Shown here one piece after another: positions 14,771 to 47,611 of a stretch of DNA of 64,000 nt (position 1 is the first letter of the stretch; every line of letters begins with the position of its first letter). The DNA is from Octopus vulgaris. Taxonomy: Eukaryota. The stretch is taken from positions 70,928,001-70,992,000 of the forward strand of contig OX597819.1 in the NCBI GenBank assembly GCA_951406725.2. Direction: 5' to 3'. The translations under genes and the position numbers were made by a program. The notes beneath the pieces were generated by a model. It was not told the DNA's origin. It did no database searches and saw nothing but the letters and a program-made list of their open reading frames with translations.

Positions 14771-14805
<35 letters not shown>

Positions 14806-16296: not shown

Positions 16297-16604
16297 TGTC
16301 TCACTGTAGTGTAGATAAACGGCTACTCCACATTTTATTATGAGTATACACAGCCCTTCAATTTTCCTAAGCCATGTTAAAGAACTCCGAAGGTTAGGCT
16401 TCTAGTGAGACTTTTAAAGCCTGGAACTTTTCAGTACTTCTTTGTGTGTGTGTATGTGTTTGTGTGTGTGTATGTGTTTGTGTGTGTATATAATTGTAAA
16501 GAGTATTGTTATGAGAAGGTGAACACTAGTTGATGGTTTGAAAGACATGGATTCTTTGTATTTAATGATAAAAAAAATTGTAATTTATATAACACATTTT
16601 TCAG

Positions 16605-16758
16605 GCATGAAGATGGCACAATTCGTTTCTGGGATGCTTCAACCACAAGTCTTACATTCCTATACAAGCTCTCTACTGCCAATATCTTCAGTGGAGAAAC
16701 TTCCCCACCAGATAATTCCGCAGGAGAGGCTGAAGAAGAATGGCCGCCTTTTAAAAAG
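16605..16758 (+). CDS. lgl: Lgl exon 10 (HEDGTIRFWDAS...LYKLSTA...EEEWPPFKK)
   Basis: tttcag acceptor, gtaatt donor, phase 2 to 0. Confidence 0.97.
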
Positions 16759-19700: not shown

Positions 19701-20865
19701 AGATGCCTTAGTGGATCTCTAGGTAGGTTAAATCTGGTGAGGAGAATAGGTGAGAGACTACCATACAGAAGTAAAGCAATATGATCTCTATAAACCTGGG
19801 ACAGCTCCAACTAAAGCAGAATTCACTTAGCTACTTATTACTGATGGACCCAGACTTTCTAGAATCTTTGGCCAGTCTGTTTGATGGGAAAACTTGACCA
19901 TAAGTCAATTACGCTAATTGGTCGAGCTATATTCACATAGGCATATTAATAGCTTTTATGATGACATTTTTCCTTTGTATGGAAATATAATTTACCTAAA
20001 TTTGAACCAGATTGTCCCTCTTAAGAATCATTGACAGAGACCTGCTCCTGTAGTTACCAACATTGTACAGTTCATAAATAAAATCCATTTTCTATCTTTA
20101 CATTAACATATTAGTTTTTGTATTGAATTTAATAACAGCACTAGTATGGAAGCATGCTCTGTAACAGCACATTGCTGCATCCACCTTTTGTTGGTGATTC
20201 CCTACTGCCTTTGCAACACTTAGGTGACAACCCTCTAACCTCTGGGTCTGTTTGGGGTAGTCATTGTTGGTGAGGATTTTACGATGTTGGAATTCAAATC
20301 CTAGCTCAATCTCCTTTAGTTGCCTTTTATGGCACACATAGGAAACGTTATGTCTTCTTTGACATACCAGTCTCCATTTAGTTTTTTTAAGATCATTGTC
20401 ACCTTAGCATACTCCCAGTTAATGGCTTCCCTGTGTGTGTTTCAATATTGGTTAAGTTGCCATAAGATGTCTTTCTTTTATAATGTTGGAAGTGCTATCA
20501 TTCAGCCACTTTGACATATTTGAATGGAATCTAGTTGTGTTCAATTGTCAAACATTGATTGAACATACTTTTACTGTATTTGATGGCTCATAAGATACAT
20601 TTTCTTTTTCTACTTCAAAAAATACTTCATAAAATCATCCTGGGTCCTATATGCAAAGTTGGGCCTCCCATAAGCTTTAATGCACTAAAACCTCTTTACC
20701 TGAATATGCCCTGCTGAAATTGGGGTTATGTCTAATATGCTTCTTTGTCTTTTATGCTATCAAACATAAGTACTCGGGATCAATGTTTGCCAAATGAATA
20801 TTTTATTTTTCTTAAACTGTAATTAGAAAAATAATCCATCTGTATTTATTCAAACAATTTTTTAG

Positions 20866-21194
20866 GTTGGCAGTTTCGACCCCTACAGTGACGATCCTCG
20901 TTGGGCTATTCAGAAGATTGCTCTTTGCCCTCTTAGTGAAACCTTGATAGCAGCAGGGACCGCTGGTCAAGTCATAGTCCTGCAGATGGAACGAGAACAA
21001 CGAGAGCAAGAGGTGACCCATGTCACCATAAACATTGTCGGAGATAGTGATAACTTTGTTTGGAAGGGCCATGAAGCTTTAGCACCCCAAGAAGGAGATC
21101 TGAAATTTGCTCCTGGCTTTCAACCAACCTGTGTAATGCAGCTGTTACCCCCTGCAGCTTGTACATCTCTCGCTATTAACTCAGAATGGCAACT
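20866..21194 (+). CDS. lgl: Lgl exon 11 (VGSFDPYSDDPRWAIQKIALCP...WKGHEAL...GFQP...SEWQL)
   Basis: ttttag acceptor, gtgagt donor, phase 0 to 2. Confidence 0.97.
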
Positions 21195-23822
21195 GTGAGT
21201 CATCAAACATTATTATTATTTTTCATTTTCCTGTCAATGTTGTTTGCAATGATTGATGTTTGACCTCATTACCATTAGGGTTAATGACCTAACTTGTAGC
21301 TTCTGGTTGTAACTTCTTTAAACATAATTGTTGCTCCTGTAACCTTCTCTAACCCTATCATGTTGTGTTTCCTGTGTAGGAGTATATGATCTCTGACAGA
21401 TTCCCTGTAAAATGGTAATGAGCAACATACCTAAAAAAAAGAAAAGAAATTACTCAAAATAGACAACTGATCATGCTGCATCTTTGTAATCAAATGTGTT
21501 TATGGTTCATTGTTAATGATGTCCTCCTTAGCTGTTGTTTACTTTTGCTTGTAATTGGAAAAAAAAAAAACAACAGATTTTTGCATTGAAATAAGCACTT
21601 GATGAACCCAGCACTTTGTCTAGTAAATAAGCAAAGCCTAGACTCTTTGCATCTGAGGAAATTATTGATGATGTTTATTCTTCAGATGCAAGGTTTACCC
21701 TTACACAATGAGAGTGATGCAGACAATCAAACTGGTGAAAGAGATGAGGAAATTAGCAATTCGAGTGAACCAGTATGATAGTTCAGAAATACTATTTATT
21801 GTTATATTCCTGAAATTTTTTGTGATTCTGTCCATTAGTTTTCCTGCAATTGCTACTCTTGAGTTGTGTCTGCAACTATTTATTCTTTTACTCAGGAACC
21901 CAACTGCAGGATAAAGTTAGACACAGGGGCCCAATCTCTTGTAGTGAATTAGATTAGACCACATGGTGGAGTGGCAGCAGCGAGATTGAAATATTTCTTT
22001 TAGAATAAAGTGTAAGCATGGCCATGTAGTTAAGAAATTTACTTCCCAACTACATGGTTCAGGTCCATTGCTTAGCACCTTGGGCAAGTGTCTTATACTA
22101 TAGCTGTGTGATGGCTTTGGTAGATGGAAGCTGAAAGAAGTCTGTTTTATGTGTGTGTGTGTGTGTACCTTGTGAATGTTATTTGTTATACAAGCAATGT
22201 TGTAAGTGAATGTCACTGTTATACAAGCAATGTCATTCATTTCTAATCTTCTGTGAGAACCTGTGTGGTCAAAGATGAATATTACTTTATTTAGAAACCG
22301 ATGAGGGTTGGTGACAGGAAGGGCATCCAGCCGTAGAAAGTCTACCTCAACAAAATCTATCTGACCCATGCATGATAGACATTAAAGCAATGATGATGAT
22401 GTATGCTCCTTTTAATAATCTTTGTGTTGCTCTTTTGTTATGCTTCATCACTCTTACCCACTTGCTCTTTCAACTATGATCCAAGAAGTGAGAGATCCCA
22501 TTCAAGATTATTGACACTGCTTTTCTTCTGCAGTTTTTTTTTGAGGGGGAAGGGACTTTGTATTTAGCACAGCCTGTTCTCTCTTGTAAAATATGACAGA
22601 CATTTTAATCTTTTTCTTACTGTATTTCTCTCAAATTTCACTGCTTTCATTTTATTTAATTTCAAAAATCATAAAGAATTTGGGAAAATAACTTTACTAG
22701 GCTAGTATCTGGAAGAGAAATCAGCATGAAATTTTGGACAGTTTTTACTTAAATCATTTTAAAAAGAGGAAGTTTGTATCAAAGAACCAGAGGCACTCAT
22801 AGGTGGATTTGTATCACAAGAATTTAAAATGCTATTCAAAGGCTTCATTGTATCTAGCTTCCAGGTTATTGACTGTAATTGCTGCCTGAATGAGCAGGAC
22901 AGTTAATCTTGCATTTTTCAATTTAACCAACTTTGAAGAACACCTGCCACAGGCCTTCTGAGAATATTATTTCTCATACACTGATATTAAGAGATCTCTT
23001 GTCTGTTCAATATTATGGAAAACTGCAATTAAGCACCAACTTTATGATCATTTCAGTTGACTTTGTAAATGATGAAGAATTTGAGAAGATAACTCAAGCT
23101 GATATTTGGAAAATGAATTTTTATGAATTTTGATGGCTGATGTCAACCCTAGCCGTGACTGGCTCTTGTGCCAGTGGCATGTAAAAAGCACCATCCAGTC
23201 GTGGTCGATACCAGCCCCCTCTGGACCCTGTGCTGGTGGTACGTAAAAAGCACCATCTGATCGTGGTTGATGCTGGCCCCCTCTAGCCCCTGTGCTGATG
23301 GCATGTAAAAAGCACCCTCTACACTCTCGGAGTAGTTGGCATTAGGAAGGGCATCCGGCTGTAGAAACACTGCCAGATCAGATTGGGGCCTGGTGCAACC
23401 TCCATGCTTCCCAGTCCCCAGTTGAACTGTCCAACTCATGCCAGCATGGAAAGCAGACATTAAATGACGATGATGATGACTTGATGGAAGATTTTAATTT
23501 ATATCCCTTTAATCCTTTTGTCACTATTTTTGTTTTAATTAATTTTTGAACATAATGGATAATTTTGTGAAATGCTTTGTCATTATTAAGCTATTGTTTG
23601 GAATATAAATTAACATGAAATTTTGATTGAAGGTTTTAATTTAGATCACTTTAAAGCAGTGAATTTATATTATATAACTGGGGATGGCCTCAAGTGGGTT
23701 GGCAAAGAAAGGGTAAATGATTTGGTTACAATATTTTAAAATTATCCTTAATAAATGTTTGTCTAATTTTTCTTTCTTTCTCGTAGTATTATTATTAGTT
23801 TTTAATTTTTATTCCATTCCAG

Positions 23823-23911
23823 TGGTGCTGCTGGTACTGCTCATGGATTTGCTCTCTTCGATTATTGCCAGAAGAAAGGAGTACTCTATCGCTGCACTTT
23901 AAATCCAAATG
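23823..23911 (+). CDS. lgl: Lgl exon 12 (GAAGTAHGFALFDYCQKKGVLYRCTLNPN)
   Basis: ttccag acceptor, gtaatt donor, phase 2 to 1. Confidence 0.96.
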
Positions 23912-26476
23912 GTAATTTAATTTGAATAAAATTCCAATATTTATGTTGTATAAAACTCCTCTGATCAATGATTCTGTAACCCTTTCGTAACCATATTTCT
24001 GTTGAGATGCTTTCTGTTTCTTTCATTTAATTTTAAATATGACAAAGAATTTAGTAAAATAACTTAGTTATCATTCAGCTAGTGTTAGCAACGTAAATTG
24101 TGACTAAGGTTTGGTGGAAGATTTTAATTCAAAACTTATGAAAATAAGACATTTGCACTCAGAGCCTGAACCAGTTTCAGCTGGGCTGGTAGTGATAATC
24201 AATAATATAAAGAATAACATTTGAGTTTCTTTTTATATATACTGGGTTTATATACTTATGAAAACAAGACATTTGTACTCAGAGCCAGAGCTGGTTTCAG
24301 CCAGGTTGGTAACGAAAGGGTTAAATGTCCACTTTGCTATCTAAGCAGAAGTTTTACACAGTTGCAAAATTGTTTTTCAGTCTACTGTAACATTTATTTT
24401 CTTTCTGAGATTGCAGAAGCTAACTGCTTAATTTTGGGTTATTTTTTTACGAGACACTATATGTCCATTCAGCCAAATGTTATAAATTCGCTTGCTTATC
24501 TGACTTGTACAAGGGAAAAGAGCTTTTGCTTCAATTAATTTGAAAATAACGAAGAATTCAATGAAATAATTTTGTCATTATTAAACTGGGTGTTGAAGGA
24601 AGTGAAGCTGGCCGAATTGTTAATGCACCGGACAAAATGTTCTGAGTTCAAATTCAACCGAGGTTGAGCTGACCTTTCATCTTTTGGGGTCAATGAAAGA
24701 AGTACCAGTTGAACACTGGGGTTGATGTAATCAACTAACCCTGTCCCCCAAAATTTCAGGCCTTGAGTCTATAGTAGAAAGGACTATTAAACTGGTGTTA
24801 GTACCCAGATTAACATGGAAATTTAAGGGAACGTTTTGATCTCAACCACATTTAAACAGAAACTTGGTATCACACAACAAGGAGTGGTCTTTGGTAGTTT
24901 GGTATCAGAAGAGTGAAAGAAACTTGTTGGGATGGAATTAAAGGAAACTCTTTGGAAATGGCTGTGTGAATAAAAATTGAAATTCTTAATTGTCATTTTA
25001 GTAGTCCTTCACTTCCTATAGTCTTGGGCTAAATGGAATGGTCCCAGTTTCAAAATTAAGAAATCTAATATGAGTTCTTGAATGACTCTGGTTCTTTGGT
25101 ATTGTTTCATTTTGAAAAATTAGATATTCTCTTATCCTTGCACTGTCTGCCTGATTGACTCCCGTGCTGGTGGCACGTAAAAAGCACCACCCGTATGTGC
25201 TCGATGCCAGTTCACCCTGACTGGCTCCCGTGCTGGTGGCATGTAAAAAGCACCATCCAAACATGGTTGATGCCAGTGCCCACCAACTGGCTCCCATGCC
25301 GGTGGCACGTAAAAAGTACCCACTACAGTCTCAAAGTGGTTGGTGTTAGGAAGGGCATCCAACTGTAGAAACATTGCCGGATCAGATTGGAGCCTGGTGC
25401 AGCCACTAGCTTTCCAGACCTCAGTCAAACCATCCAACCTATGCCAGCATGGAAAACATGTTAAATGATGATGATGATGATGAATCAAAATCCTACTCAG
25501 TTTGTGTGTATATGTGACTGTGTCAAGTCACAGTGGAAAAGTCCATATTTTGTCACCAATATTACATTCTGTCTGTGGCCAGAAGAATTTATTCTCAGAT
25601 GATTAGCCCTAAGCCGATGACTTTGGATAGCTTGATCCTTTAATGTCCATGTTCCCTGCTGGTATGGTTTGGATGGTTGGACAGCATCCAACAGGTTCAA
25701 AGACAGCATTTGTGCTCCAATGGTTGCTTTGGCATGGTTTCTATAGCTGGATGCTCTTCCTAACACCCACTACTTAACGATATGTACGGGGTGACTTTTG
25801 CATGGCACCAGCACTAGTGAGGTTGCCATGTAGTTTGCAAGACTAAGATCCCCTTTGAGTGAGTGGTGCTTCAGTAGAGAAGGAGGCAGATGGTGGGTTT
25901 AAAATGTGAGAGAAGGGAATAGTTGTTGTAGAGGAGCTACATAGTTTGTCACGTTATAGAAGAGAGGGTGGTTGGGATTTGGGTTTAGAGCTGGGGAGAG
26001 AGAAAAAAAAGTAGTGTTGATGTACTGAATTCAGTTATCTGAGAAAACCTATCTCTCATACACCTGCTTCCTGTATGAGATGAGAGTAATTTCATTTGTT
26101 TAATGAGGTAGCAGAAATTGGAAATAAACTCTGACTCTATTGTACCTCATCATCGTTGTCATCATTTAATGTCCGTTGTCCATGCTGGCATGGGTTGGAC
26201 AGTATGACCGGGGCTGGCAAGCTGGAATGCTGCTCCAGACTCCAGTCTAATTTGGCATGGTTTCTACAGCTGGATGCCCTTCCTAACACCAACCACTCCG
26301 AGAGTGTAATGGGTGCTTTCACGTGACACCAGTATCTGCCACAACTGCAATTTTTACTTGGCTTAATGGGTCTTCTCAAGCACGACATGATGCCAAAGGT
26401 CTGGATTTTTACATATGTATGTATGCATGAGTAAGTATTTATATAAATAACTGTAGTATTTGTGTTTTTCTTTCAG

Positions 26477-26609
26477 ACATGACCAATGCTGTTGTGAATG
26501 ACTCTCTTCTTTCTCGTCGTATTTCTTTCAAAAAATCATTGAGAGAGTCATTCCGGCGCTTAAGAAAATCCCGTGCTAACAGACGAGAGAAAATGAAAAA
26601 AGAAAAATG
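26477..26609 (+). CDS. lgl: Lgl exon 13, polybasic/aPKC phosphorylation segment (SRRISFKKSLRESFRRLRKSRANRREKMKKEK)
   Basis: tttcag acceptor; weak TG|gtagat donor whose phase 2 matches the exon at 44102; three conserved serines. Confidence 0.93.
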
Positions 26610-29600
26610 GTAGATATTACTTCTTTTCACTTTTTTTTGATTTATCAGAATATTTATGATGCTTTTAATTTACAAGAAAAGACTTTTTTTATATATCTAT
26701 TTTGTCAAATTAACGTGCATATCTTAGAGTTTCTGATATCATCTTATAGTCTGTAGGTATATCCTATCTGTTAATATTATATTTGATTCATAAATTAGCA
26801 CTCCTACACATTACATGTACACACATACACACATCATCATCATTTAATGTTCCCTTTTCTGTGTTGGCTTCTGTTTGACATTTTGAGAAGAACAGATGAG
26901 CCAGAGGGCTGTGCCTAGATTCTACATCTTCTTTAGATTGGTTTCAATAGCTAGATGCCCATTCTAACACCAACCACTTTAACAGAGTGTACTGGGTGCT
27001 TTTTATGTGGCACCAGCACCAGTGAGGTCACCAAGCACCCACAAGACACTGAGTTGGAGGAATAAGAAACTATCATAGAAGGAAAAGGGCAGGTATTTTG
27101 CTGAGAGAATACATGGTTTGCCTACTTAGAGAGAGAGGTCCATATACAAGGGGGATATGAGAGGGAATCTGAAAGATGCTGGCATAGATTAGAATCTGGC
27201 AGGTCCAAGAACTGTGTTGTGCTCTACTGTCTTCTTTGGCATGATTGCTACAACCAAATGCTCTTCCTAAAACCATTCATTTTATAGAATATATTGGGTA
27301 CTTTTTCCCTGCACCAACACTGGTGAGGTCACCTTGTAAAAAAATAAGGTATCTTTTGACTGAGTGGGACTACAGTTAAGAAGGAGGTATCTTTATACTA
27401 AGTGTCTAGAGATTAACACATTAACTGCCACACGTGCCACTGGTGGTTCATTGCAAACTTCATGCAAACATCTTTATGCATGACTTTTAGTACAGTTTTG
27501 TAATTTGAGACGATATTTTATTCTGTGTCTTTGACATGGTTTGGAGAATATTTAAATAACATTAGTGCTAAATGTTAAAGTTTAATTATGAAATATTGTA
27601 AAAATGCAAAAATATTATATTTCCTTGTAATTGAACAGTATGCAGTGTGATCAGAAATATGTGACGTCACTACCAACGACGCTAAATATTTCCAGTAAGA
27701 AGCTGTGGCAGTTAGCATGTCCGAGTATGAATGGACTGGAACAGGTTTCTTACTGTAGAGATGATATATATAGCTTCTCACATTATACAAGGGTAGACGA
27801 GAGAAAACAGTCTGGGACAGGAAAGGGCGGTATATATGGGGGGTTGATGAGGTATTAGAGTGGGTCCTCAATGTACAATAAGTTGAGCCAAAGTGAATGG
27901 GGACAGAAGACATCCCTGCATGAAAAACAAGTTATTTCACCAATCATATTGATTGATTCACATCATTATTAGATTTTGTTTTTATTTTGTATTTTTTGTT
28001 TTATAAAGTGGAGATATTGTCTTGAGCATGTCCCTTCATTACTAAGCTTTTACTTCTAGTTGCAGCAATTAGTTTTGTATACTTTGATGTTTTTGACTCA
28101 TTTTTCTCAAATTTTGTTATGTAAGAAATTGGTTCGGATGCCCAGTTTATTATCATTTACTCAATTACCATCTTTTCACAACAATAGATCTGTTCCTTTC
28201 CCTTGTTCTCTTTTCCGCTTTGCATTCTTCAAGACAACAATGCAGGGGCCATGAAAAGCACCCAGTGTTTGGTAATCAGTCCAAATAGCATCAACACAGG
28301 GCTTGAGAGGATTTTTTAGTCTTACTGATGGCAAGTACTGGTGTCATTACTTTGCTTGGAAACAGGTGAGGGTTGATAGCAGGAAGGGCATCTGGCTGTA
28401 AAAAAAAAAAAATCTGCCTCAATAAAGTTTGTCTGACCCATAGTAGCATAGATAAGTGGAGCATTAAAACAATATTGAGAGTACCTCTTTTTTATGAAAT
28501 GGTTACTCTTCACAAGGGCGTTCAGCTTTTAAAAGCTCAATTTCTCTGCAAATGTTAAGGTTTACAGACTTCATCTGATGCCAGTATTAAAAGATGACTG
28601 CAGATGATGGTGAAAATCATCATTTTAATGTCCACTGTTTTATGCTTTCATGGATTGGATGCACTAGGTTGTGGCAGATTTTCTTTGGCTGGATGCTCTT
28701 CCTGTCACCGACTCTTTCCTGATTCCAAGCACAGTAATGTTTCCTCATAGTCAGACAGGCTTTCTCAGAATATTGGAAATGAATGACTTTTATGAAAAGC
28801 CTGCATTGTTAAGACAAAGAGACACAAACATACACACACTCACATCCTACAAACATACAGTACGTATATGATGGGCTTCTTTCAGTTTCTGTCAACTAAA
28901 TCCACTCACAAGGCTTTAGTAGAAGGGACTTGCCCATGTTGTCTGTCAAGCAGTGAGACTGATCTCAAAGCCATGTGATTGGGAAGCAAACTTCTTAACC
29001 ACAGAGCTATGCCTGGGTCTATAGCTAGCAAGAATTCATCATCATCCTTCAACATCCATCTTCCATGGTGTGAATATTAACATAATTAAAAAAAAACATA
29101 AATAACAACTAGGATAAATAACTTGGTTGTCATCATCATCTTTTAACATCCGTCTTCCGTGCTGACAGGAGCTGACAAGGCAGGTTTTCTGCGGTTGGAT
29201 CATCATCATCATCATTTAACATCTGTTGTCCATGCTGACATGGGTTGGACAGTTTGACCAAGGCTGGTAAACTAGAAGACTGCACCAGACCCCAGTCTGA
29301 TTTGGTATGGTTTCTATGTTTGGATGCCCTTCCTAATGCCAACCACTCTAAGAGTGTAATGGGTGCTTTTACGTGCCATAGGCACAGGTGCTATTTGCGT
29401 GACACCGGTATCTGCCATGACTGTGATTTTACTTGGCTTGATCTCCTTCTCAAGCACGACATAATGCCAAAGTTCTTGCTCATTGCCTCTGTGAGGCCCA
29501 ACACTCAGAAGGAGCTTTTCACGTCTCCAACATCAGCCACTTTGCCTCAGTGAGGCCCAACGCTTGAAAAGTGCTCTTTACATGCCACCAGCACGGATGC

Positions 29601-30981
29601 TAGTTACACGGCATCAGCCATGACCAAATGTGCTCGTAATATTTAATGTAATGAGCTTTCATTAAGTTAATTGAAAATAGTTATACGGCAATTAGCTTCA
29701 TGACTAATTTATATTTGAATTATTTTGGCAAGTGTGGCTAGCAACTCTGATCATATTCTAGAGTTTTATTTTTGACGTCCTCGAATAAAGCATCGACTTT
29801 ATCATACTTTCTCAAAAAATGAGAGAATCTTATGATAGATATACAAAAAGTAACGTATACATATTGGTATGAAGATAAGCATACTTAAAGGATATCAGTA
29901 ACAACTGGGATAAATGACTCGGTTATTATCATTCTTGTTTAACATCCCCTTTTCTATGCTGGCATAGGTTGGATAGGTCAACAGGATCTGATGATCCAGA
30001 GGGCAGTGCCAAGCTCCAATGTCTGCCTCGGCAGTGCTGCTGTTGCTGGATGCTCTTCCTGACTGCAACAACTTTACTGAGTGTGGACCGGGGGTGGGGG
30101 TTGTGACCCCAGCTCTGGCGAGGTCACCAAGTAATTTGCAAGACAGAGAAAAGACTCTCTTTGACTGAGAAAGGTTTTTCACAGAGGAAAAGAAGAGAAG
30201 ATGGCTTTGTGCCAAATGCTGAGAGGCTGAGATATGAAAGAGGGATGGGAACAAGTGCTTTGCTACAGAGGTGATGCATGGCTAACCCAACAAGAAAGAG
30301 AGAAGAGACGTGGTGATGAGATGTCAGGGAAACACCACCATCAGAGTACAAGAATGTGGCTAAAGAGTGAATAGGGACAAAAAAAGAAAAAAAAAAATCA
30401 TGGCTGACCAGGCAGATGATTAGTTTACAAGAATGTGAAAGGAGGGTGACAATGGTTAGAGCTGAGGACAGAAGAAAAAGTAGTAAGAATTACAGAATAG
30501 TTGTTTTAGATCTGATCGAGAAAACGTTGCTTTTTCTTTTTCTAATTCCCATCTTAGGATGTGTTCAGATTGTAATGTTTGCCAATTAATTAGTAAAAGA
30601 AAAGTATTTAATTTTTCAGAATTTGACAGTCTGAAGTTAGATGGGTTTTTTTTCTATTGTGTATCTGATATCATCATCATCATCATCATCATTTAACATC
30701 CATGTTCCATGCTGGCATGTCTGAGTGTGATTTAATTTCCTTTTTAATTTTGAAAAATTTTTTTTCTTTCTGTTGCATCTTGTCTTTATTATTATATTCA
30801 TTTTTGCTGTTGCTGTTTTTTTTTGTCTTTTTTTTCCCCCCTTTGCTCCTTTTTTTGAAAAAAAAAAGAAAAGAATATTTGACCTAAAATGGTGCTAAAG
30901 CATGTTGGGAGAACATGTGGCTTTCTGTGTTGTTGCTGCTATTGTTGTTGCAATGTTTATTATGCTAAAATATTTTTCCAG

Positions 30982-31008
30982 GGCCAGGCGAAATAAACGA
31001 ATGAATTG
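30982..31008 (+). CDS. lgl: Candidate 27-nt alternative microexon of Lgl (adds WARRNKRMN)
   Basis: tatttttccag|GGCCAGGCGAAATAAACGAATGAATTG|gtatgt; phase 2-2, no stop, not in a recognisable repeat. Confidence 0.55.
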
Positions 31009-33308
31009 GTATGTACAGTTCTCCCTCTCCCACCAAGCTTCACTAACTCAAAAACTCCCTTAATTTTTATTCTTCATTTATAATTGCTTGTCAACCCAAC
31101 CCTCCAAAAACTCAAATGCCTGTTTTATTATTTTAGTTGCATGCTGTTAATATGTCCATGTTACAACTAGATCTATATTAATGTTTAGATACCAATTAAA
31201 AAAAACACATAAAAATATTTCAAATAATTCTTTGAATGGGTTAAATCAGTCTGGAGCAGACTTCAGCTGGTGGGACTTCCTTAATGGCATGCCTAACAAA
31301 TATTTACCTTGAAATTTTTTTCAGTAGTGTGACCTACATGTTGATGTGCCATGTCTCATGTGGCCTGCTTCATGAAAAAGGTTGCCCATGCCTGGGTTAG
31401 ACCAAAGTCTATGTTTTATTACTATTATTGTTATTCTTATTGCATGCAGTTGAGAGGGTTATTTTGGTCTTCTCTGTCTTTAATGTTGAGGTCATCCAAT
31501 TTTGGTTACTTGGTTACAAATTTATCATCAAATGTTAATACATGTTATAATATCCACATGTGGCTTGAAACTTTTCTGTTGACATTATAAATACCTGGAA
31601 TTAGTCAGTTTCTTATAATTCTTAGCATTTTTTATGAGTAAAAGGCACAGGTATGGATGTTGCTTCCCAACCAGATGGTTTTGGATTCAGTCCCTGTGTG
31701 TGGTACCTTGGGCAAGTATTTTCTCCTATAGCACCAGGCCAACCAAAGCCTTGTCACACACACAATGGATTTCTTTCAGTTCCCATCTACCACATTCGCT
31801 CACAAATTTGGCTGGCCAGAGACTATAGCAAAAGGCCCTTCCCAAAGGTGCCACACAATGAGACTGTGCCCCAAACCATTGTGATTGGGAAGCAAACTTC
31901 TTAATGACACAGTTATGACTCTGTTTCATTTAATTTATTGATTAGTTACCAAAATTTCTTCTGCAAATGTCCAAAGTTTCCAGACAAAATTTAATCATTG
32001 AGTTAAGGAATTTATGAAAATATTTGAAGAATTTATTTAGTGAAGAAACTTTTTCATAATTAAGGTAGTATTTGGAACCTAAATTAACACAAAACCTTGA
32101 TGGAGGGTTTTAGTTTAGATAAGTTTAACCCTTTCATTACTGTATTTATTTTGAGATGCTCTATTTTTCTCTCAATTATTTTAGATATAACATAGAATTT
32201 AGTAAAATAATTTAGTTATCATTAGGCTAGTGTTAGGAACATATATTGTGGCTAAGGTTTGGGGAAAGATTTTAATTCAAAACTTAGGAAAACAAGACAT
32301 TTGTACTAGAGCCAGAGATGTTTCAGCCAGGTTGGTAACGAAAGAGTTAACCCTTCAGCAGTCAGATTGCTCTGTCAAAAGTATTGCTTATTTATCCACA
32401 TTGTTTTTGAATTAATCCCACTTTTTCTCATAGATCAAGGTTTCAATGATACAGTTTTTACTTTTTAGAATGACATTGTAATATAGGTGTAGTTTGAACA
32501 TTTGGCTAGTTTGAATATTTTGGCTGGATATGGCTAGTTAAACACTAAAGGGTTTAAAGAGGAAATTTGTATGAAAAAAACAGGTGGTTTCCATCAGGTT
32601 GGTATCGAAACGGTTAACCCGTTTGTTACCATATTTCTGATGAAATTCACTGTCTTTATTTGAATACATTTTGAAAATAACAAAAAATCTATTTAGTAAA
32701 ATAACTTTTGTTGTAGTTAATCACGTATTTGTTACATAAATCAATACAAAATTTTAATAGGTCTTAATTTAGATAATTTTACAACGGAAAGCTTATATCA
32801 TATAACCAGGGGTAGGTTGGTATCAAAAAGGTTATAGTTTTTTTTTCTTTTAAGTAGTTTAATTATTATCACTAATTAAGCTTTCTAAACAAGCACACCC
32901 TATTATATCCAGTGATGCAGTATTGTTTCTCTTGATGTACCTTAAATAAATTCAATTAATTGCATTTAATGTAATCCCTGTGTAGTTTGTTACTTACCAA
33001 TGGTAGTTGTAGTAGCATTAGTAGTAGTAGTAGTAGCACTAATAGTTTTGTGTTGTAGTAATATTACTTTGATTGGATGAAAGATTATCCAATTATTTCA
33101 GTGTAATAATGTGCACAACGATTCACAATTAAAAAAAAAAATTTTGTTTAATTTCATTCCTTTGAAATTTTCACAAGTCAATAACTCTTAAAAGGATTAG
33201 CTTAGCTTCGATAACGTGTGTGCCTATGTATTTTTGCATATGTAAACGAGTGCGTGCGTGTGTGTTTATGCATGTAGATGTGTGTGTGTATGTGTTTATG
33301 CATGTAGA

Positions 33309-33358
<50 letters not shown>

Positions 33359-34029
33359 TACAGGGTGTCCATAAGTTGCTTTACAATTTAATGTCTGGAA
33401 GTGTAAGATTTGTAAAGATGTTTTATGGATACCTTGTATATCTGTGTGTATGTGTGCATGCATGCATGTATGTGTATCTGTTGCTGTATTTCACGCACAT
33501 ACAGAAGATGTTCTGTATTATGTCTACAGTTTATGTCTGACCGGCATCGATTCTATTGCATGCTCCAGCCTTCCTCAGAGTTCTTGTGTTGAATTCAGTT
33601 GTATTGGACACCTGAAGAAGGTTGGCGCACACAACAGCCAAAATATCTAAAAGCAAGAATCAAGATGAGGTGAACACCAGTCAGACCAACATAAATGGTT
33701 TACATAATTATAATTTCCTCACCTCACAAATATAGAATTCTAAGATGTTCTGTAATGAGTGCAAATACTGAACAGGGTGGGGTAGACATTTTATATTCCA
33801 GCTTCACCAAACAGGAAATAGACAAAGAAGACACAGCGATAATGTTCATTTCTTACACCATTTTCCCTGTACACATTAATGCAGTCTATGGCAATGGATC
33901 AGCAACTGACTTGTGGTATTTCTATTATGAAACCTAGCACGGTTTAAGCCACAATCGTTTGTTTGTTGTATGTCTATTCTTTCATGCTGGCTTGGGTTAG
34001 ACGTTTGTGTGTGTATATGTGTATGTGAA

Positions 34030-34320
34030 AGCACGTGGCTTAGTGGTTAGGGCACTCTGCTAATGATCGGTGCCGTGTCCTTCAGCAAGACACTTTATTT
34101 CACGTAGCTCCAGTCCACTCAGCTGGCAAAAATGAGTAGTAACTGTATTTCAAAGGGCCAGCCTTGTCACACTGTGTCATGCTGAATCTCCCTGAGAACT
34201 ACAATATGGGTACACGTGTCTGTGGAGTGCTCAGCCACTTGCACGTTAATTTCATGAGCAAGCTGTTCCATTGATCGTATTAGCTGGGACTCTTGTCGTT
34301 GTAACTGACGGAGTGCTCCC
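34030..34320 (+). mobile_element. tRNA-derived SINE family D
   Basis: GTGGCTTAGTGGTTAGGG head, GTGTCCTTCAGCAAGACACTTTATTTCAC body; homologous copies at 5549-5860 and about 37830-37970. Confidence 0.8.
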
Positions 34321-34344
34321 ATCCTATTTATATATATATATATA

Positions 34345-34831
34345 TCTATATATATAAAACTGTAGTTGTGTGAGTGTCTGTCCCCTTCGATTTAGATTCC
34401 TAACTACTCCCACATTTTGCGGTGCAGTTTAACCAAATTTGGGTATCTTATAGTCGTAATTCATATCGAGCCCATCTGGCTATTAGCGCGCGTCTACGAT
34501 AACATCATTTTTTATTCCATTTTAATGCATAATTTTTCGTGTGTCGATGGTGGCGGAGTTGGCGTTCATGGTCACACCTGCACCTGTTTGCTTGTCCCCT
34601 TCTTCCCTCCCTCGTGAAGCTGTGGGGAAGGGAGTGTAAGGAAATCAACGTCGTAAAGCGTTGTCAAGGAGACCAGCGTTCTTTTAGAACAACGACTTCA
34701 TGGCTTGAAGACACCAAAACAGAAATGGCCAAGAAAGACCGAATTGGCATCTATAAGGGAAGTAACTCTCTAAAAATGCTTATATAGTTATTTCCCTTAC
34801 AAACCCGAACAACGCCGGGCGATACTGCTAG
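34345..34831 (+). mobile_element. Non-autonomous Helitron-like element
   Basis: A|TCTATATATATAAAA 5' end, 3' CTAG|T, short GC hairpin CCCG..CGGG at 34804-34819, no TSD, CpG-rich. Confidence 0.8.
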
Positions 34832-36734
34832 TATATATATATATTTGTCTCTCAGTTTATTTCTGTGTTCCCTTCTGTTGAAGAGCATAAGCTCGAAACT
34901 TAACTTTCTCACTTCCTGAGCGTTAAACTAATACATCTGTTTGTTGTTTACACACCTGTCTTTGTCTTTTGTTTTGTTTTTGTTTTTTGTAAATTCCAGC
35001 TATATATATATGTATATATGTAGATTTATGTATATAGATATATATATGTATATAGATATGTATATGTATATAGATATGTATATGTATATAGATATATATA
35101 CATATATATATACATATATACATATAGATATATATACATATATCTATATACATATATACAGTTGCCATGATAGATCGGTAACCACTACACACAGTTTTTT
35201 CTTTCTTTGTTTCTTTGTGTTCCTTTCTGTAGAAGAGTGTAGGCTTGAAACGTAAATGACTTTTTCAATTCCTGAGTGTTATACTAATACATCTGTTTGT
35301 TTTGTACACCACCTGTCTTCGTCTTTTGTTTTTTTCGTGAACTCTCCTCCTATATACATACGTATATATATATACAGATAGATATGTATATATATGTATA
35401 TATTCTTTATTTGTGAATTAAGGCGACCATTGGTTTCATGTTAAGAAGTGTAGGAAAATATACAAGTATCTTAACAATTCACAAATAAAGACATTATTTA
35501 TCCACCAATGCAGGCTTGAGCACTCATTTTATCGTTCTATATTTACATATAGGAAATGACACATTTACTGTCAGGACACTGTGTTTCTATGCATCAGCAT
35601 AATAATTGCAGTGCTTCATCAGCTTTCACATGTTTAATACAGGAGCGAACACTGTTGGATCGACAAGATAAATATAAAAAAGGATGATAATAATCTGTGG
35701 AGTTGTGCGGGGGTGGATCTTTTGTTGAAGAAATGAGAACATTGTATGTTTAGTTTTAATATTTAATTGGTGTTATGAAATGTAGCCATTTTGAGAGCCT
35801 GCACTCCATATGTAATGTTACACATTTTTGTTGTTGTTGTTGTTCTTAAGGTGGGATGCTGGCAGAATGGTTGGCATTCTGGACAAAATGCTTAGTGCCA
35901 TTTTGTCTGTCTTAGTGTTCTTTGTTCAAATTCTGCTTAGATTGACTTTGCCTTTCATCCATTTGGGGTCAATAAAATAAGTACCAATTGAGTACTAGGG
36001 TCAATGTAATTTGACTACCTTACCCTTACAAAATAGCAGGCCTTGTGCCAAAATTTGAAACCATTGTTATAACTTTGATTGTATCATGTGTTTTACCAAA
36101 TTCTTCCGAATATAACCTGTTATCGGATTTACCAGATGAACCCACACTGTGGCTAGAAACACAGTCCAAGTCCCTACTTTACCGGGACTGATTCTGGAAA
36201 AAGGGTCTGGAAATGTGCTAAAAATGCACAGACATTAGCATTAATGGTGGTGTCACAGCATAGCTACAGCTTCTTGCTGAAACTGAAAATAGAATAACTA
36301 GAAACAAACCTAATTGCCATGTTAATTGGTTATAATTGATTGGACTCTAAGAGAAATTAATCCCAATTTTAATTTCAAAAATTTGCCTTTGATGTACATA
36401 AGGCAAAAAAACTTGTTCTGTTTTGTTTTGAGTTCATTATCCTCTTGTTTATTTACATGTTATATACATACATACACCATGAATATCAGAAGGTATGAGA
36501 GGTGAATATATTTAACCACTTTTCATCCTTGGGATTACAGACAATTCACAGCCTTCAATTTGTATTATATAATGTGTAGGATGCATATTAGTGCAGACAT
36601 GTAAATATAATTTATTTTACACTGAAATTATTACTACATGAAGAAGTATATCCAAATGGCCTTAATCCCAGTGTTGACAAATGGTTATATATATGTGTGA
36701 TATATATATATATGTATATATACACTTTTTTTAC

Positions 36735-36941
36735 TACCCACAAGGGGCTAAATACAGAGAGGACAAATGGATTAAGTCGATTATATCGACCCCAGTGCGT
36801 AACTGGTACTTATTTAATTGACCCCGAAAGGATGAAAGGCAAAGTTGACCTCGGCAGAATTTGAACTCAGAACGTAACGGCAGACGAAATACGGCTACGC
36901 ATTTTGCTTGGCGTGCCAATGTTTCTGCCAGTTCACCGCCT
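36735..36941 (-). mobile_element. SINE family C (well-preserved copy)
   Basis: Reverse complement reads GGCGGTGAACTGGCAGAAAC...GAGTTCAAATTCTGCCGAGGTCAACTTTGCCTTTCATCCTTTCGGGG; (+) copies near 18745, 24605, 35850, 51243, 61435, 61922, 62200 and 62380. Confidence 0.85.
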
Positions 36942-38933
36942 TTACATATATATATATATTGGACAGCCTGACTGAGGGCTGTTGAGCCAGAAGGCTGTAT
37001 GAAGCTCCAATCCGATCTGGCAAGGTTTCTACAGCTGGATGCCCTTCCTAACACCAACCACTCCAAGAGTGTAGTGGATGCTTTTTACATGCCACCGGCA
37101 TGGGACCAGTCAGCTGGCATCGACTACACTCAAATGGTGCTTTTTATGTACCACTGGCACAGGAGCCAGTCAGGCGGCACTGTCAACAATTACACTTGAA
37201 TGGTGCTTTGGTTTTTACATGTCACTGGCACAAGTGCCATTCAGGCGGTATTGTCATCGGCCCACCTCTCGTAACCCCTGACTTTTTATATACTCCTCAT
37301 GAAATCATTTCATTGGTCGGATCTCTTGCATTTCAGCTGCTTGGTACTTTGTATTGTACTCTTCTGTACTGGATTACCCAAGTCCTCTACAGGAGCTTTC
37401 TGTGATAGCCACACAATTCTCATCATCATCATTGTTTAGTGTCCATCTTCCATGCTGACATGTGTTGGACAGGAGCTTGGCCAGCTGGGGAGCTGTCCAG
37501 ACTCTGATTGTCTATTGTGACATGGTTTCTACAGCTGGATGCCCTTGCACTTTACAGAGTGTATTGGGTACTTTTTACCGTCTCAGGACAATTACATCCC
37601 TAGGACAATTACACTCTCCTCATTGGACAGTTCCCCCTGACGACAACTACTTCCTAGGATGATTACCCCACTTGGTTAATTACCCCCTCCAATAAATTAA
37701 GAAGTTTTAAATCATCATCTGCTGTCCTTGGGGATGGGTTATTGTCCATGGAGGGGGATAAATGTTCCAGACGTGCTTTTTACATGTCACCAGCGTATAT
37801 TTACCCTGCAAATCCGTATACAACCAGGTGAAGGCGCATGGCTTAGTGGTTAGTTTTACAATCCCAAGTGCAAGATTATGGTTTCAATTCTAGGATCGGG
37901 CAGTGCATTGTGTTCTTGGGCAAAACATTTTATGTTGCACTCAGCTGAAAATGGGTTACCCTGTGATGGTCTGGCTGGGGAGAATGTTGGTCTCCTGCCC
38001 ACCTAGCCAGTGGGGTGGCATTGTCTGAAAGCTACAACAGTGCAAACAAGTGCACTGTGGTTATTGGTGTATAACAACATCCAATAGCCTGGTCCATACA
38101 GTGATGTATTTAGTCTGAAGAAATGACTGGTGTTAGTTAAAACAAATTGTAGAATCAATTCAAACACCCCTGCTGTAGTAACAGGAGAAATTTATGATTA
38201 CTTCTGGTTGTCTTATTTGTGGCTTTCTTGTTAGACGCTTGCTTCCCAGCCACTATGTGACACCTTGGGCGAGTGGTTTCCACTATAATCTCAGGCTGGC
38301 CAAAGCCTTGTAGTGGATTTTGTAGACGGAAACTGAAGGAAGCCCTTCATTTATCATCATTTAATGTCCATTTTCCATGCTAGTATGGGTTGGATGGTTT
38401 AACAGAAGCTAGCAAGGCCTGGAGCCACACCATGTTCCAGTCTGTTTTGGTATGGTTTCTACAGCTGGGTGCCCTTCCTAATGCCAACCACTTTACAGAG
38501 TGAAGTACCAGGCTTAATAAGAATAAGTATTGGAGTTGATCCATTTGACTAAAATTCTTCGAGTTGGTGCCCCAGCATGGCCACAGTCTTATGACTGAAA
38601 CAAGTAAAAGAATGAACCAATTCCAATTTACTAAGTCTGTTACTAACAGTATTGATTATGTAGATAATTAATATCCACATTGTATATCATTTGAAATCCA
38701 TTAATGTTAACATTTTAAACTTTAGCATGTTTTGCTGACGCCAACGGTAGATTTAGCAGAAGAAATAATGTTTGTTCTTATCTTTGTGAATCTACTTAAA
38801 AGCCGGTTATTGTAACGACTTATTTTAATCAGATGACTAATCAAATAATCTTTTTAATCCTTTCAGCAGTGTTGGTGTGTGTGTGTGTGTGTGTGCCAGT
38901 TCTGGATATCAGGGGCTTTATTCGATCTGTTAT

Positions 38934-38967
<34 letters not shown>

Positions 38968-39472
38968 CAACAACAGTTGTGGTAGTAGTGTCTGTCAAAA
39001 GATGAGTTTGGTTGTTGTAATCCAGTGGTTTTATGTTTGAGCCTTAGCTTTGTTAACTGTGGTGGGTTGGAGTGGTGGGGACATCTTAAATTGTTATCTA
39101 TTGTGTGTGTGTGTGTAGTAGTAGTAGTAGTAGAATAATAAAAAGAAAGTTCTTGGTACAGTATTATATATATTTGTAAAAAATGAGTAGAGATAGCCTT
39201 TTTTGGGTGGTGGTGGGGTGGATAATTTTTATCTTAATCTTAATAATGTTTACAAGTGGGATACTGTGATATGAGTTTTGAGCTTCAAGTAGCTGTTTTC
39301 ACACCATCTCTATTAATTTTTTCAAATATATATATATACATATATATATATATACCCATGCCCGTCCAACCCATGCTAGCATGGAAAGCGGACGCTAAAC
39401 GATGATGATGATGATGATGATATATATATATAATGTACATATATATATATATAATGTACATATATATATATA

Positions 39473-39667
39473 ATGTACATATATACACAAGGGCACTACA
39501 TGAGCACCTACATTGCTAAAAATAGAAGTCAAAATTACTTATGCACCATCGAATAGTCACAAATCTGCTACATTGATTTGTGACTATTCGGTGGTACAGA
39601 AGTATTTTTGACTTCTATTTTTAGCGATGTAGGTGCTCATGTAGTACCCTTGTGTATATATGTACAT
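39473..39667. repeat. Near-perfect hairpin MITE, about 93-bp arms and 9-nt loop
   Basis: Arms 39473-39565 and 39575-39667 with about 6 mismatches; TA-flanked CACAAGGG ends. Confidence 0.92.
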
Positions 39668-40056
39668 ATCTAATATTCTATGTATCTATTTTATTAATTT
39701 GCCTGTACGGCTGATAATTCGCTTGCCACTTGTGACGGTATTTAATAATACTATCCCTATATTTATTTTTATATATATATATTTAAATGTAATTAGGATA
39801 AAGTCCTTATTTAATGATTTGTCAGTGGCCAGCATACTAAAATACCATAATAGTTAATTTGTATTAAAATTATAACAGGGATGTTGAATGATTACAACAC
39901 CAGTCTGCTAGAAATAGACCATTTGGGGTCTATTTCTAGCAGACTGGTATTATAATTATTCAACACCCTTATAATTTTATATATGCATGAATGTGTACAT
40001 ATATGTGTGTGTGTGTGTATATACATATGTATATATATATATATATGTGTGTGTGT

Positions 40057-40112
<56 letters not shown>

Positions 40113-41348
40113 TGCGTGTGTTAATGATTCAAACACATGCTCTTTGTTGTTTCATTTACTAATCAATTTTTCTTTGGAGATTCATGTCAGCAGTGTCTTT
40201 TAAAGAATTTATTTGAGAATAAAGTGCAGTGTTTATCATTTTATTGAGGAATTAAAAAAATTGTGATGTCCACTCTTTCATCCAAATAATTATCAGTAGT
40301 CTCTTGTTTTCTTTTCTTCTCAATCTGATGTTTGATGGGGTCCCTCTGTCAGCTTTTCCTGATATCGTCCTCTTCTGCTTCATTAGTAGCAGCTGATGAC
40401 TAGATGTCTTAGACTAGTTTTTCTTTCTTTTGTTCCCATATTATTTGTGAAATACACTCTTTCAATTTATTATTTTTTTTTTTTAAATGAAGAATTTAGT
40501 AAATTAACTTTGTCATTATTAACCTAATGTTGAGAACATAAATCAATATGGAATTTTTTTTTATTAGGTTTTTTTTAGGTAATTTTGAAAACTTTATCAA
40601 AGAACCACAAGTTGTTTTGGACAGGTTGTTACCAAAAGGGTTAATTCTTTGATTTTATATTTCTGTTGAAATATTCTGACTTTGTGTCAAAACATTTAGA
40701 AAATAATGAAGCCTTTAGTAAAACAGCTTTGTCGATATTGCGCTAATGTCTGGAACATAGATTGACATAGAAATTTTATAGATTTTAATTTAGATTACTT
40801 TCAAACAGCACTGACTTTGTCTTTACTCTGCTGGTGTTTGGGACATGAAATTTCTATGGAAAATTTTTAATTTTGCTCTGTTTAAAACAGGAAATTTGTA
40901 TCAAAGTTACTATCAAAAGGGTTAATTAGCAGGTGATCAGTGATCAATATCATTCATTGAATGCTCGTTATCTGTTCATTGGCACAAAGTGGTGTCTAAT
41001 TCCTTCTTTTAGCAAACTATTACAATTCTTTCTCTTCTTTTGTGTATTTAGTTTTGCTATAGTTTGTTAAAATTTGCTGTGATTCTCTTTGATTCAAAGT
41101 AAGAAAAATGTTGAACCTACATATCTTGAGTCTTGTCAATGATGTATACCTGGCTGTCACATGCCTAGATGAAATCTGGCCCCTCCGATATATAGGAAAC
41201 AGTAAATCATTCATTCACTGATATTGTGGAAAGTTAGTGTAGCTGACTAAACACTCAGTATATGTAATTGAAGTGGTATTAAATGAAGATTACAAAGATG
41301 TACTTGCATAGCAAGTGACCTGATCTAAGATTGTGTGCTGAAGCAAAA

Positions 41349-41642
41349 ACGATTGTGGCATGGAAGGTGTGTATGAGCCATTTAAGAAACACAAAAAAAC
41401 CCCGTTAGATTCACTTCAGCATTTAAATTTAGTTTGTCAAAATATTTTCATCGCTTTGAAACTGCAACCGGTTCACTGACAAAATTCTGTGCTGCATCCA
41501 TGGATGGAATTTTGTCAGTGAACAGGTCATGATCACAAAGCGACAAAAATATTTTGACAAACTAAATTTAAATGCTGAAGTGAATCTAACAGTTTTTGTG
41601 TGTTCTTAAATGGCTTATAAGCACCTTCCACACTGCAATTGT
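41349..41642. repeat. Inverted repeat with about 138-bp arms, 19-nt spacer and hammerhead-like motifs
   Basis: GTTAGATTCACTTCAGCATTTAAATTTAGTTTGTCAAAATATTTT mirrored exactly in the right arm. Confidence 0.92.
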
Positions 41643-41849
41643 AAATGAAAATTGCCATCTGTCTATCTTACTTAATGTATATACACCATTGAAAGGCAAG
41701 ATGCTGTGGTTTTTGTTGGAGAGAAATTATCTTCAAAGACATGTTACCAGAACAATGTGAAGATCATCCCAGCATTGACTGATAAGAACGTCAGACACAT
41801 TTTGGCCGCCTTGTGTGTTGTGCATGAGGCAGAATGTGCTATGGTTACC

Positions 41850-42010
41850 ATTTGTGGACTTGCTTATAATGTAATCAAAGAACAACACAACACTCATGAC
41901 TTTCAAGAACATTTTTTCATGCTCAAAATATTTGAAGCATGGAATAGACCTCTAGCATGTATTGTTAGCTGTCAGGTTTCTGCATTCTTCAAAAATTCCA
42001 TACTTCCCCT
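41850..42010 (+). mobile_element. CR1/L2-group LINE 3' fragment
   Basis: HFFMLKIFEAWNRPLACIVSC...FK resembles the FF..RV...WN.LP..VV....FK C-terminus. Confidence 0.6.
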
Positions 42011-44101
42011 GATGAACCTGTACACCTGTTCCTCTTTATGACTCTTCTATGTCTTTTTGTGTTTAACCCTTTTGTTACCATATTTCTTTTGAGATGCTCT
42101 GTGTTTCTTTCAGTTAATTTTAAATACAACAAAGAATTTAGTAAAATAACTTTATCATTCAGCTAGTGTTTGGAACATAAATTGTGACTAAAGTTTGGTG
42201 GAAGATTTTAATTCAGAATTTTTGAAAGCAAGCCATTTGTAGTACAGAGCCAGAGACAGTTTTGGCTGGGTTGGTATCAAAAGGGTTAATTCTGTGGGCT
42301 GTGCATGTTGTTTTGGCTTTCATTTGCTGTCTTTCTTTACCTGACTTATAGCTCTGCTCTCTCACCTTTTCTGGCAAGCCATGTCACTCCTGAATGCTAC
42401 TCAACAACAAGCTCATTACATCATAGTAAAGATGACCAGGAACAAAGCAGATAATTTCAAAGGTCTATAAATGAATATACCAAGGGTTGTTTAATCAGAG
42501 ATGAAGGGTTCTTTAATGGCTTATCCTTTTGCAAAGCCTAGCATTTTGTAGTTTTGTTATTGTTATTTAACCCCCGGGTCAACCTTAATTGAGCAGACCT
42601 ATGATCAAAATCTTATCCAGTTGTAACCATCCATTTCTATTTTTAAATGTCTTGGACTACATTATTTGATGTGTGTTTACTTATTGAAGACAACGGTGTG
42701 TGATTCGATGGTGGTTTGGCTGCTACTTCTTAGCAGGTCGAGTTGAGGCTTTCTCATTGGCTTGCACACATTCAGTATTTAATTCAACTCTGTTGGGTAG
42801 GTGAGAGAAAAAAATTCCAGCCCTGCCCACCTCTGAATATAGTCATACAATGTTTAGAATTACAGAAGGTGTGCATTTGTATTTCTTGTGTGAAGGTTAA
42901 ACACATGATAAATGTTTGAGAAGGCAAAAAAATGGTAAATTCTTGACTTTCAGAGAAAATTCGGTAATGAGTTTGTTTGGTGTTTTGAAAAGGTTAAGAA
43001 ATATCTATTCTGTTATTTGTTTCAGTCATTTGACTGCGGTCATGCTGGAGCGTCGCCTTTAGTTTAGCAAATTGACCCCAGGACTTATTCTTTGTAAGCG
43101 TAGTACTTCTTCTACCGGTTTCTTTTGCCAAACTGCTAAGTTATGGGGATGTAAACACACCAGCATCAGTTGACAAGTGATGTTTGGGGTGGGTGGGTGT
43201 CAAACACACAAATGCCCATACACACATATATACAAAGGGCTTCCTTCAGTTTCCGTTTATCAGATCCACTTACAAGGCTATAGTCAGCCTGAGGCTATAG
43301 TAGAAGACACTTGCCTAAGGTGCCACGCAGTGGGACTGAACCCAGCAGAACCATGCTTGTTGTGAAGCAGGACCCTTTTGACACCTATTTTACTCTACTT
43401 GAGACACTCATAGCCATTAAAAAACAAAAATCCTAATATATTTTGTATAATTAAATTTTTTTAGGAATTGTATTAAAAAAAAAACAAAGAAAAGGTTAAA
43501 ATATTTTGTGTAAGTGCCGCATGGTTGTGTGGTAAGAAGCTTGCTTCCCAACTACATGGTTCTAACCCTAACGCTAACCCAGGACCCACCAAAGCCTTGT
43601 GAGTAGATTTGGTAGACATAAACTGAAAGAAGCCCGTCGTATATAAATATATATGTATATTTGTGTGTGTATTTGTCCCCCCCCATTTTGGCGTATTTAG
43701 CCCCCCACCGTAACTTAGCAGTTTGGCAAAAGAGACTGATGGAATAAGTACTAGGCTTACAAAGAATAATTCCTGGGTTCAGTTTGTTTGACTAAAAGTT
43801 GTGCTCCAGCATGGCCACAGTCAAATGAGTGAAACAAGTGAAAGAATAAAAGAAATTGTAGAAGAATAAACAATTTACTGCGCATAAATTCTAACCAGAT
43901 TGTATAAGGATCCCTTAGGGTCATGTGGACCCTAGTTGAGCACCACTGATTTATATCGTTAATGTTCATTTGCATAATCACTAAATTAAAAACACAAATC
44001 ACTTAAAGTTTAAAAGATGAAAGATGCCTGTCTTTTTTTTTTGTTGTTGTTTGTATTTGGTTTAATTTGTAATTTTTGTTTTACTAATTTTTTTGTTGTA
44101 G

Positions 44102-44295
44102 TGAGATTGAAGGTGGAGAAGCAGTCTCTACTGAAGGCACAGCGCCAGCTGAAGGTGCTTCTGCTAGTGCATCTCCTTTGTCATCATCTCCAGAACTAAA
44201 ACCAATGGAGAGGCAAGTAGAAGCCCGGAGTTTGGATGATTCCATGGCCTCCATAGTGAGATTCTTGTATTTCGCTGATACTTTTGCAATCAACA
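44102..44295 (+). CDS. lgl: Lgl exon 14 (EIEGGEAV...KPMERQVEARSLDDSMASIVRFLYFADTFAIN)
   Basis: ttgtag acceptor, gtaagt donor, phase 2 to 1; ER.VEARS.DD...VR.LYFADTF conserved. Confidence 0.96.
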
Positions 44296-44693
44296 GTAAG
44301 TAACTTCCTTATATTATTTTATTCGAATCTCCTTTGTCATAGAAAAATATTTTGGGTTGATGGAGAAGGATTGTGAACCTTCTCCAGGCCAGTCTTGAGA
44401 ACCTTGTTTCGCGTTGGTGATTCTATATTTAAGTGGTGAAGGTTTGAAGAATTTGGAATGACTTCTCATTTTGAAGAGAATCTCCTTTCTTACTCAGGTT
44501 TTAGGTAATACATTTCTCTTTTGTGAATAGGTGTGGCTCTGTGGTTAAGAAGTTTGCTTCCCAACCTTATGCTTTTGGGTTCAGTCCTACTATGTGGTAC
44601 CTTGGCCAAAGTATCTTCTACTATAGCCCTGGGCTGGCAAAAGCTTTGTGAGTGAATGTTATAGGTGGAAGCAGAAAGAAGCCTGTAATATAC

Positions 44694-44741
<48 letters not shown>

Positions 44742-47062: not shown

Positions 47063-47149
47063 TTCATAATTCCTCATCTCTTAAATATGGAACTGTAAAT
47101 GATGACATTGACCAAAAATTAAATTTTTTCTTTTCTTTTTTTTCTGCAG

Positions 47150-47433: not shown

Positions 47434-47575
47434 GTGGGTGAATTCTTGGCTGAAATTTCATGCCCTTAAAACGGGTTTAAAACACATTTTGTTGGCAGAT
47501 TTCTGTTGAAATACACTGCCTTTTCTTTTGATTAATTTTGAAAATAACGAAGAATTTAGTGAAATACTACTACTG

Positions 47576-47611
<36 letters not shown>

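Follow-up and report, generated by a model that had tools for sequence, protein, structure and literature searches.

An alternatively spliced 27-nt microexon adds basic residues to the regulatory loop of octopus Lgl

Epithelial polarity and asymmetric division share a core switch, the aPKC-driven release of Lgl from the membrane, which works by cancelling positive charge in a single loop of the protein. The octopus lgl locus raises the question of whether a short stretch inside a long intron is a genuine exon that changes this loop and, if so, where the exon is used and to what effect. We analyzed a 64,000-nt stretch of the genome (70928001-70992000; hereafter the window), and all coordinates given below are positions in the window on the forward strand. 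The part of lgl that it holds (14..56419, + strand) comprises 20 coding exons, which encode residues 62 to ~1053 of the protein P0121, and both ends of the gene lie beyond it. Exon 20866-21194 showed 100% identity with an Octopus vulgaris Lgl protein, and P0121 aligned to human LLGL2 across 16-978 with an E-value of 2.8e-288, which makes it a clear Lgl orthologue; it has the double WD40 propeller, the LLGL domain (PF08366) and the polybasic 10-11 loop that are the hallmarks of the family. Elsewhere in the gene, a second cassette exon (56258-56419; 162 nt, 54 codons) encodes an acidic tail and is skipped in P0123, P0129 and P0131; its acceptor is a tandem CAGCAG, from which forms one residue apart arise (P0121 versus P0128). 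A 500-nt low-complexity array of CAT/CTT triplets in an intron (9615-10136), open in several frames, is probably a simple repeat.

The exon in question is a phase-2 cassette microexon of 27 nt (30982..31008, + strand), located in a phase-2 intron of 17,492 nt (26610-44101). Its acceptor AG lies at 30980-30981 and its donor reads GTATGT (31009..31014, + strand), its length falls within the 3-27 nt of microexons, and it keeps the reading frame. It is flanked by a constitutive upstream exon (26477..26609, + strand), whose last bases are TG (phase 2), and by a constitutive downstream exon (44102..44295, + strand). Upon inclusion, KKEKCEIE is replaced by KKEKWARRNKRMNCEIE, without a stop and with a gain of four basic residues. 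The nine added residues (674-682 of P0121) have a net charge of +4 and contain no Ser or Thr. An earlier note on this DNA had proposed this microexon from the letters of the sequence, and the position, splice sites, neighboring exon ends (26609 and 44102), intron phase and peptide change that it gave were all borne out, the last by translation. Inside the microexon, a further AG (30986-30987) with a slightly higher matrix score could give a 21-nt in-frame variant, which was not seen in the contig of run X6, described below, or in any listed protein. The same intron also holds short high-copy repeats (26892-27055, 28860-29023 and 29188-29515) that are abundant in transcript contigs and are likely of the SINE type.

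Sequence alone was not decisive as to whether this exon is real. Open stretches of 3-51 nt that run from AG to GT and keep the frame numbered 499 in the same intron; when scored with a splice-site matrix derived from the 18 acceptors and 18 donors of lgl itself, the microexon came 11th among them, and a sequence-only filter for pseudo-microexons missed 30982-31008. What singles the exon out is therefore its support in transcripts and annotation rather than this ranking. The Octopus Lgl protein cluster has 17 members, 15 of which are among those listed; the nine microexon residues are found in 6 of these 15 and are absent from the other 9. The annotation of each of three species, O. vulgaris, O. 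sinensis and O. bimaculoides, includes both isoforms, and the peptide is the same in every one. For O. sinensis, the models with the exon are XP_029637339, 340, 342, 343 and 344 and the model without it is XP_029637341; the corresponding pair for O. bimaculoides is XP_014785852.2 and XP_052824579.1, and CAI9724365 and CAI9724363 carry the exon in O. vulgaris. The exon is thus not hidden, being already present in RefSeq and GenBank models, all of them automatic.

Transcript contigs were examined for 7 of the 24 runs listed (19 holders), from 7 studies. The runs carry no tissue label and, although they are not recorded as RNA, their contigs are spliced and therefore represent transcripts. The contig of run X6 leads from the upstream exon through the whole microexon into the start of the downstream exon, spliced directly; the joins 26609-30982 and 31008-44102, which the earlier note had suggested looking for, are both present in it. 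Direct skipping, from the upstream exon straight to the downstream exon, was found in contigs of X9, X15 and X16. The X9 gene contig stops 29 nt into the downstream exon (44102-44130), as would be expected if another path, for instance unspliced intron or a variant, branched off there. Three further calls were inferred from sequencing depth in the bin 30992-31155, where inclusion predicts the contig depth multiplied by 17/164. X1 was called as including (1.34, with 1.35 expected), in line with the same check on X6 (3.52, with 3.51 expected), and its piece ends at 26608, as does that of X6; X2 and X7 were called as skipping, with a depth of 0 where 13.85 and 3.99 were expected under inclusion. 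Over the seven runs, inclusion was thus called in two and skipping in five, and both forms were seen among the runs under organism label A. In the four runs with a directly displayed junction (X6, X9, X15 and X16), each has a single gene contig across it, which fits an either-or pattern, possibly overstated since contigs drop minor forms; such data give neither inclusion level nor tissue. Taken with the annotated isoform pairs, these contigs show that the microexon is a real, alternatively spliced exon of octopus lgl.

How far the exon extends beyond Octopus was addressed by comparing Lgl proteins across molluscs. Of four proteins in one cluster, two (P0005/P0135) read KKEKSETAE at the junction and two (P0136/P0137) read KKEKRAKKNKDVIGETAE, a nine-residue insert at the same junction in which the split Ser codon becomes Arg and Gly, as expected of a phase-2 exon. 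In a tree of 21 proteins, these four and two more form a clade (100/100) that is sister to Octopus plus Argonauta and is likely decapodiform. The octopod and decapodiform lineages split roughly 270 million years ago. When ARRNKRMN is set against AKKNKDVI, the BLOSUM62 score is 15, a value attained by 0.06% of 33,275 open intronic 8-mers, with 3 of the 8 residues identical between octopus and sister clade. A basic core is common to both, and the sister-clade insert has a charge of only +3 and contains Asp. Judging from these alignments, the sister-clade insert is very probably homologous to the octopus microexon, and its distribution suggests a coleoid origin, although annotation misses microexons. 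Argonauta (one protein) and P0003/P0004 have the skipped form only, which is not evidence that the insert is absent, and no further insert-bearing cephalopod form was found among 6 and 13 matches, the two cephalopod-like ones of the 13 being single downstream-exon frames. Among 40 listed proteins from a further six clusters of molluscs (chiton, three gastropod genera plus Littorina, and Mytilus, for which 15 of 28 members were listed; six short site-less fragments were excluded), there was no within-cluster length variation at the junction. The gain of a Trp, to which attention had been drawn at the outset, does occur in the octopus form; it falls in the junction codon, which encodes Arg in the sister clade, and is unlikely to be the conserved function. 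A role for this Trp as a conserved membrane anchor was rejected on the same grounds, and also because, on an ideal helix, W674 points away from F647/L651/F655/L658.

We consider it probable that the microexon is regulated by tissue or developmental stage. The reading that we prefer, to which we assign a probability of roughly 0.4, is that its inclusion is probably restricted to certain tissues, most likely neurons under the control of Srrm234 in its eMIC form, and is predicted to strengthen the electrostatic binding of Lgl to the plasma membrane. Because its splice sites are weak, skipping would be the default state, and inclusion would be switched on by a tissue factor that acts on the UGC region upstream. 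We hold inclusion to be slightly likelier in neural than in other tissue. Alternative splicing in O. vulgaris is reported to be highest in neural tissues (excerpts of PMC9699675).

The splicing signals agree with such control in part. The acceptor of the microexon scored 2.0, compared with -1.3 to 16.9 for the 18 others, and its donor scored 5.4, below most of the gene's donors (0.1 to 11.7); both are weak by this measure, which is rough, as the matrix was derived from only 18 sites of lgl itself, with the other sites scored leave-one-out. The weak 3' splice-site region (30912..30981, + strand) is a UG-rich, 68-nt AG-free zone that has TGC at -48, -45, -33 and -19, three of these being YGCY; downstream of the donor lie an ACTAAC (31042..31047, + strand; 34 nt past it), a candidate QKI/STAR site, and a TGCATG (31138..31143, + strand; 130 nt past it), a candidate Rbfox site. 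YGCY is the site of MBNL, and UG-rich sequence that of CELF. All motif positions that had been reported earlier hold; in window coordinates, the four TGC are at 30934, 30937, 30949 and 30963, the ACTAAC at 31042 and the TGCATG at 31138. To judge how unusual these features are, we used post-hoc frequencies from the introns of lgl. AG-free zones of at least 68 nt are also found at 4 of the 18 other acceptors, and a TGC within -25 to -6 at 2 of 18, with 24% of 22-nt intron windows holding a TGC; at least four TGC per 58 nt occur in 1.2% of intron windows. In flies, eMIC exons combine weak splice sites, a long AG-free zone and an acceptor-proximal UGC with UCUC tracts, CUAAY branch points and short introns (excerpts of PMC8797185). 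The first three of these fit the octopus exon, with the AG-free zone and the UGC being features that other sites of the gene also have, and the last three do not: neither a UCUC tract nor a CUAAY branch point is present in the 98 nt upstream, and the flanking introns are long (4.4 and 13.1 kb), with an upstream donor of middling strength. UCUC and CUAAY are enriched in eMIC exons rather than absolute, and UGC itself, found in 74-79% of human eMIC targets, is not strictly required (excerpts of bioRxiv 10.1101/2024.09.17.613571). The genome encodes an SRRM_C/eMIC-family match (PF15230, 32.6 bits against a cut-off of 27) at G000:C25:37317492-37317626, an exon of octopus Srrm234, and the regulator is therefore available.

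The same motifs also lend themselves to a different reading, in which the exon is equally real but belongs to a muscle or other non-neural program, with QKI/How acting at ACUAAC, Rbfox at UGCAUG, and the upstream UGC serving as MBNL or CELF sites. Indeed, ACTAAC is the rarest motif of the set (0.7% of intron windows within 50 nt; none of the 18 other donors within 150 nt), and four of the five upstream TGC are YGCY, a density of at least four per 98 nt that is reached in 2.4% of windows. In human muscle exons, the foremost motifs are Fox and acuaac sites on the downstream side, where CELF motifs are a mark as well (excerpts of PMC1950531), and the absence of UCUC and upstream CUAAY points the same way. 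The size of the exon, its weak sites and the UGC at -19 would, however, suit an eMIC target, and motif maps from vertebrates need not apply in octopus. TGCATG is near chance frequency, being found within 150 nt in 9.7% of intron windows and at 3 of 18 other donors, and was discarded as evidence by itself. We regard the muscle reading as somewhat unlikely. The earlier note had taken the motif set to indicate a tissue-specific, possibly neural isoform; UGC, ACUAAC and UGCAUG are all there, but the latter two make up a muscle signature just as well, so that the motifs do not decide between nerve and muscle, because ACUAAC and Fox sites also lead human muscle exons and the upstream TGC are mostly YGCY.

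Returning to the preferred reading, its second part concerns what the insert does to the protein. The upstream exon encodes the polybasic motif with serines 642, 646, 650, 654 and 661, and the downstream exon encodes an acidic linker and ERQV, aligned with QRKI, the sequence through which human LLGL2 binds the Par6 PDZ. Within the 10-11 loop the insert has a middle position: it comes 13-21 residues past the last candidate aPKC serine (S661) and ahead of ERQV, the counterpart of the Par6-binding motif. Earlier it had been taken to extend the Lgl polybasic region; the basic stretch beside the aPKC sites does become longer, but the insert falls outside the core polybasic motif, all of which is retained in the skipped form. 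The net charge of the loop changes from +8 in the skipped to +12 in the included form, and from +9 to +12 in the sister clade. AlphaFold2 models placed, at moderate confidence, a helix at 647-681 when the exon is present and at 647-674 when it is absent, a difference of seven residues or about two turns (pLDDT block means of 58-75 and 55-63, respectively), and the same secondary structure of the propellers in both. Lgl binds PI4P/PIP2 via Lys and Arg of the loop, its targeting depends on their number, and phosphorylation cancels the charge (excerpts of PMC4621827). The insert would thus lengthen the basic helix and add charged residues that aPKC cannot phosphorylate, and this would raise the amount of phosphorylation that it takes to free Lgl from PI4P/PIP2 membranes. 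That stronger membrane binding is the main effect of the insert has perhaps an even chance. Independently of the exon, Octopus and Argonauta Lgl have SRRISF, which is genome-encoded (within 26477-26609 of the window), where most other listed invertebrates have SRRKS; the first aPKC-type serine is thereby left with one less basic residue next to it.

A regulated exon might also act mainly in ways other than lipid binding, by making the tether between aPKC and Par6 longer or stiffer, or by supplying a basic signal for docking or for import into the nucleus. When human Lgl2 is in complex with aPKC and Par6, its loop runs from kinase to PDZ, which bind the two ends, and residues 655-695, to which the insert aligns, are disordered (excerpts of PMC12216845); the isolated mouse loop is also nuclear (excerpts of PMC4621827). 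The linker, however, was between 53 and 79 residues long in the 12 proteins measured, so its exact length is unlikely to matter, and the conserved part of the insert is its basic core; we find this reading quite unlikely. Least probable of all is that the exon is a nearly neutral, tolerated variant in a disordered loop, with differences between runs that stem from individuals, stages or assembly: the loop is variable across animals, the splice sites are weak, the peptide is only 3/8 identical between clades and contigs are unable to give inclusion levels, but place, length and phase are the same in two cephalopod clades, the peptide is identical in three Octopus species, and in some runs the form with the microexon is the principal one among the contigs.

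For now, the exon counts among the numerous lineage-specific microexons; gene models already include it, and a well-studied regulatory motif lies next to it. Through a cassette exon that supplied non-phosphorylatable charge, splicing would offer a second way of setting the Lgl switch. In the data examined, the exon appears confined to coleoid cephalopods, and it may therefore belong to their neural or muscle splicing program. Taken as a whole, a coleoid neural splicing switch, in which a phosphorylation-proof extension of the basic helix would help Lgl in neurons to resist removal from the cortex by aPKC, and splicing would thus set a threshold for the Par/Lgl polarity switch, is an unlikely, tentative proposition. 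The two isoforms nevertheless constitute a natural pair of variants for testing the effect of charge outside the core motif on release. In the literature on octopus microexons, Lgl/LLGL2 splicing and cephalopod Lgl, we found no description of the exon, its tissue or its function, and the literature on the Lgl polybasic domain and LLGL2 splicing yielded no case of a cassette exon controlling the charge of the loop. One supplementary file of PMC8797185 and the text part of the supplement of PMC9699675 hold nothing on the exon. A comparative preprint (bioRxiv 10.64898/2026.09.05.749416) does not mention Lgl/LLGL in the available main text, and O. bimaculoides exon data in its supplements may bear on tissue.

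Set beside known systems, the exon and peptide are exactly those of the public Octopus Lgl isoforms, which exist as automatic models. With the neural microexons controlled by eMIC proteins in flies and mammals (SRRM3/4, Srrm234), it shares its 27-nt length, preservation of the frame and weak sites, and it also has a fairly long AG-free zone and a UGC near the acceptor, as do some other sites of the gene; it differs in having neither a UCUC tract nor an upstream CUAAY, and in its long flanking introns. The ACUAAC and Fox sites of vertebrate muscle cassette exons (excerpts of PMC1950531) have possible counterparts downstream of the octopus exon, in single copies only, the ACUAAC being uncommon and the UGCAUG near background. 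The octopus protein resembles Drosophila Lgl and human LLGL1/2 in its 10-11 loop (PDB 9ejk, 6n8p, 8r3y), with a conserved, phosphorylatable basic motif. Whereas the known regulation of the Lgl loop is through phosphorylation and phosphoinositide level (excerpts of PMC4621827 and PMC12216845), in octopus a cassette exon alters the charge of the loop.
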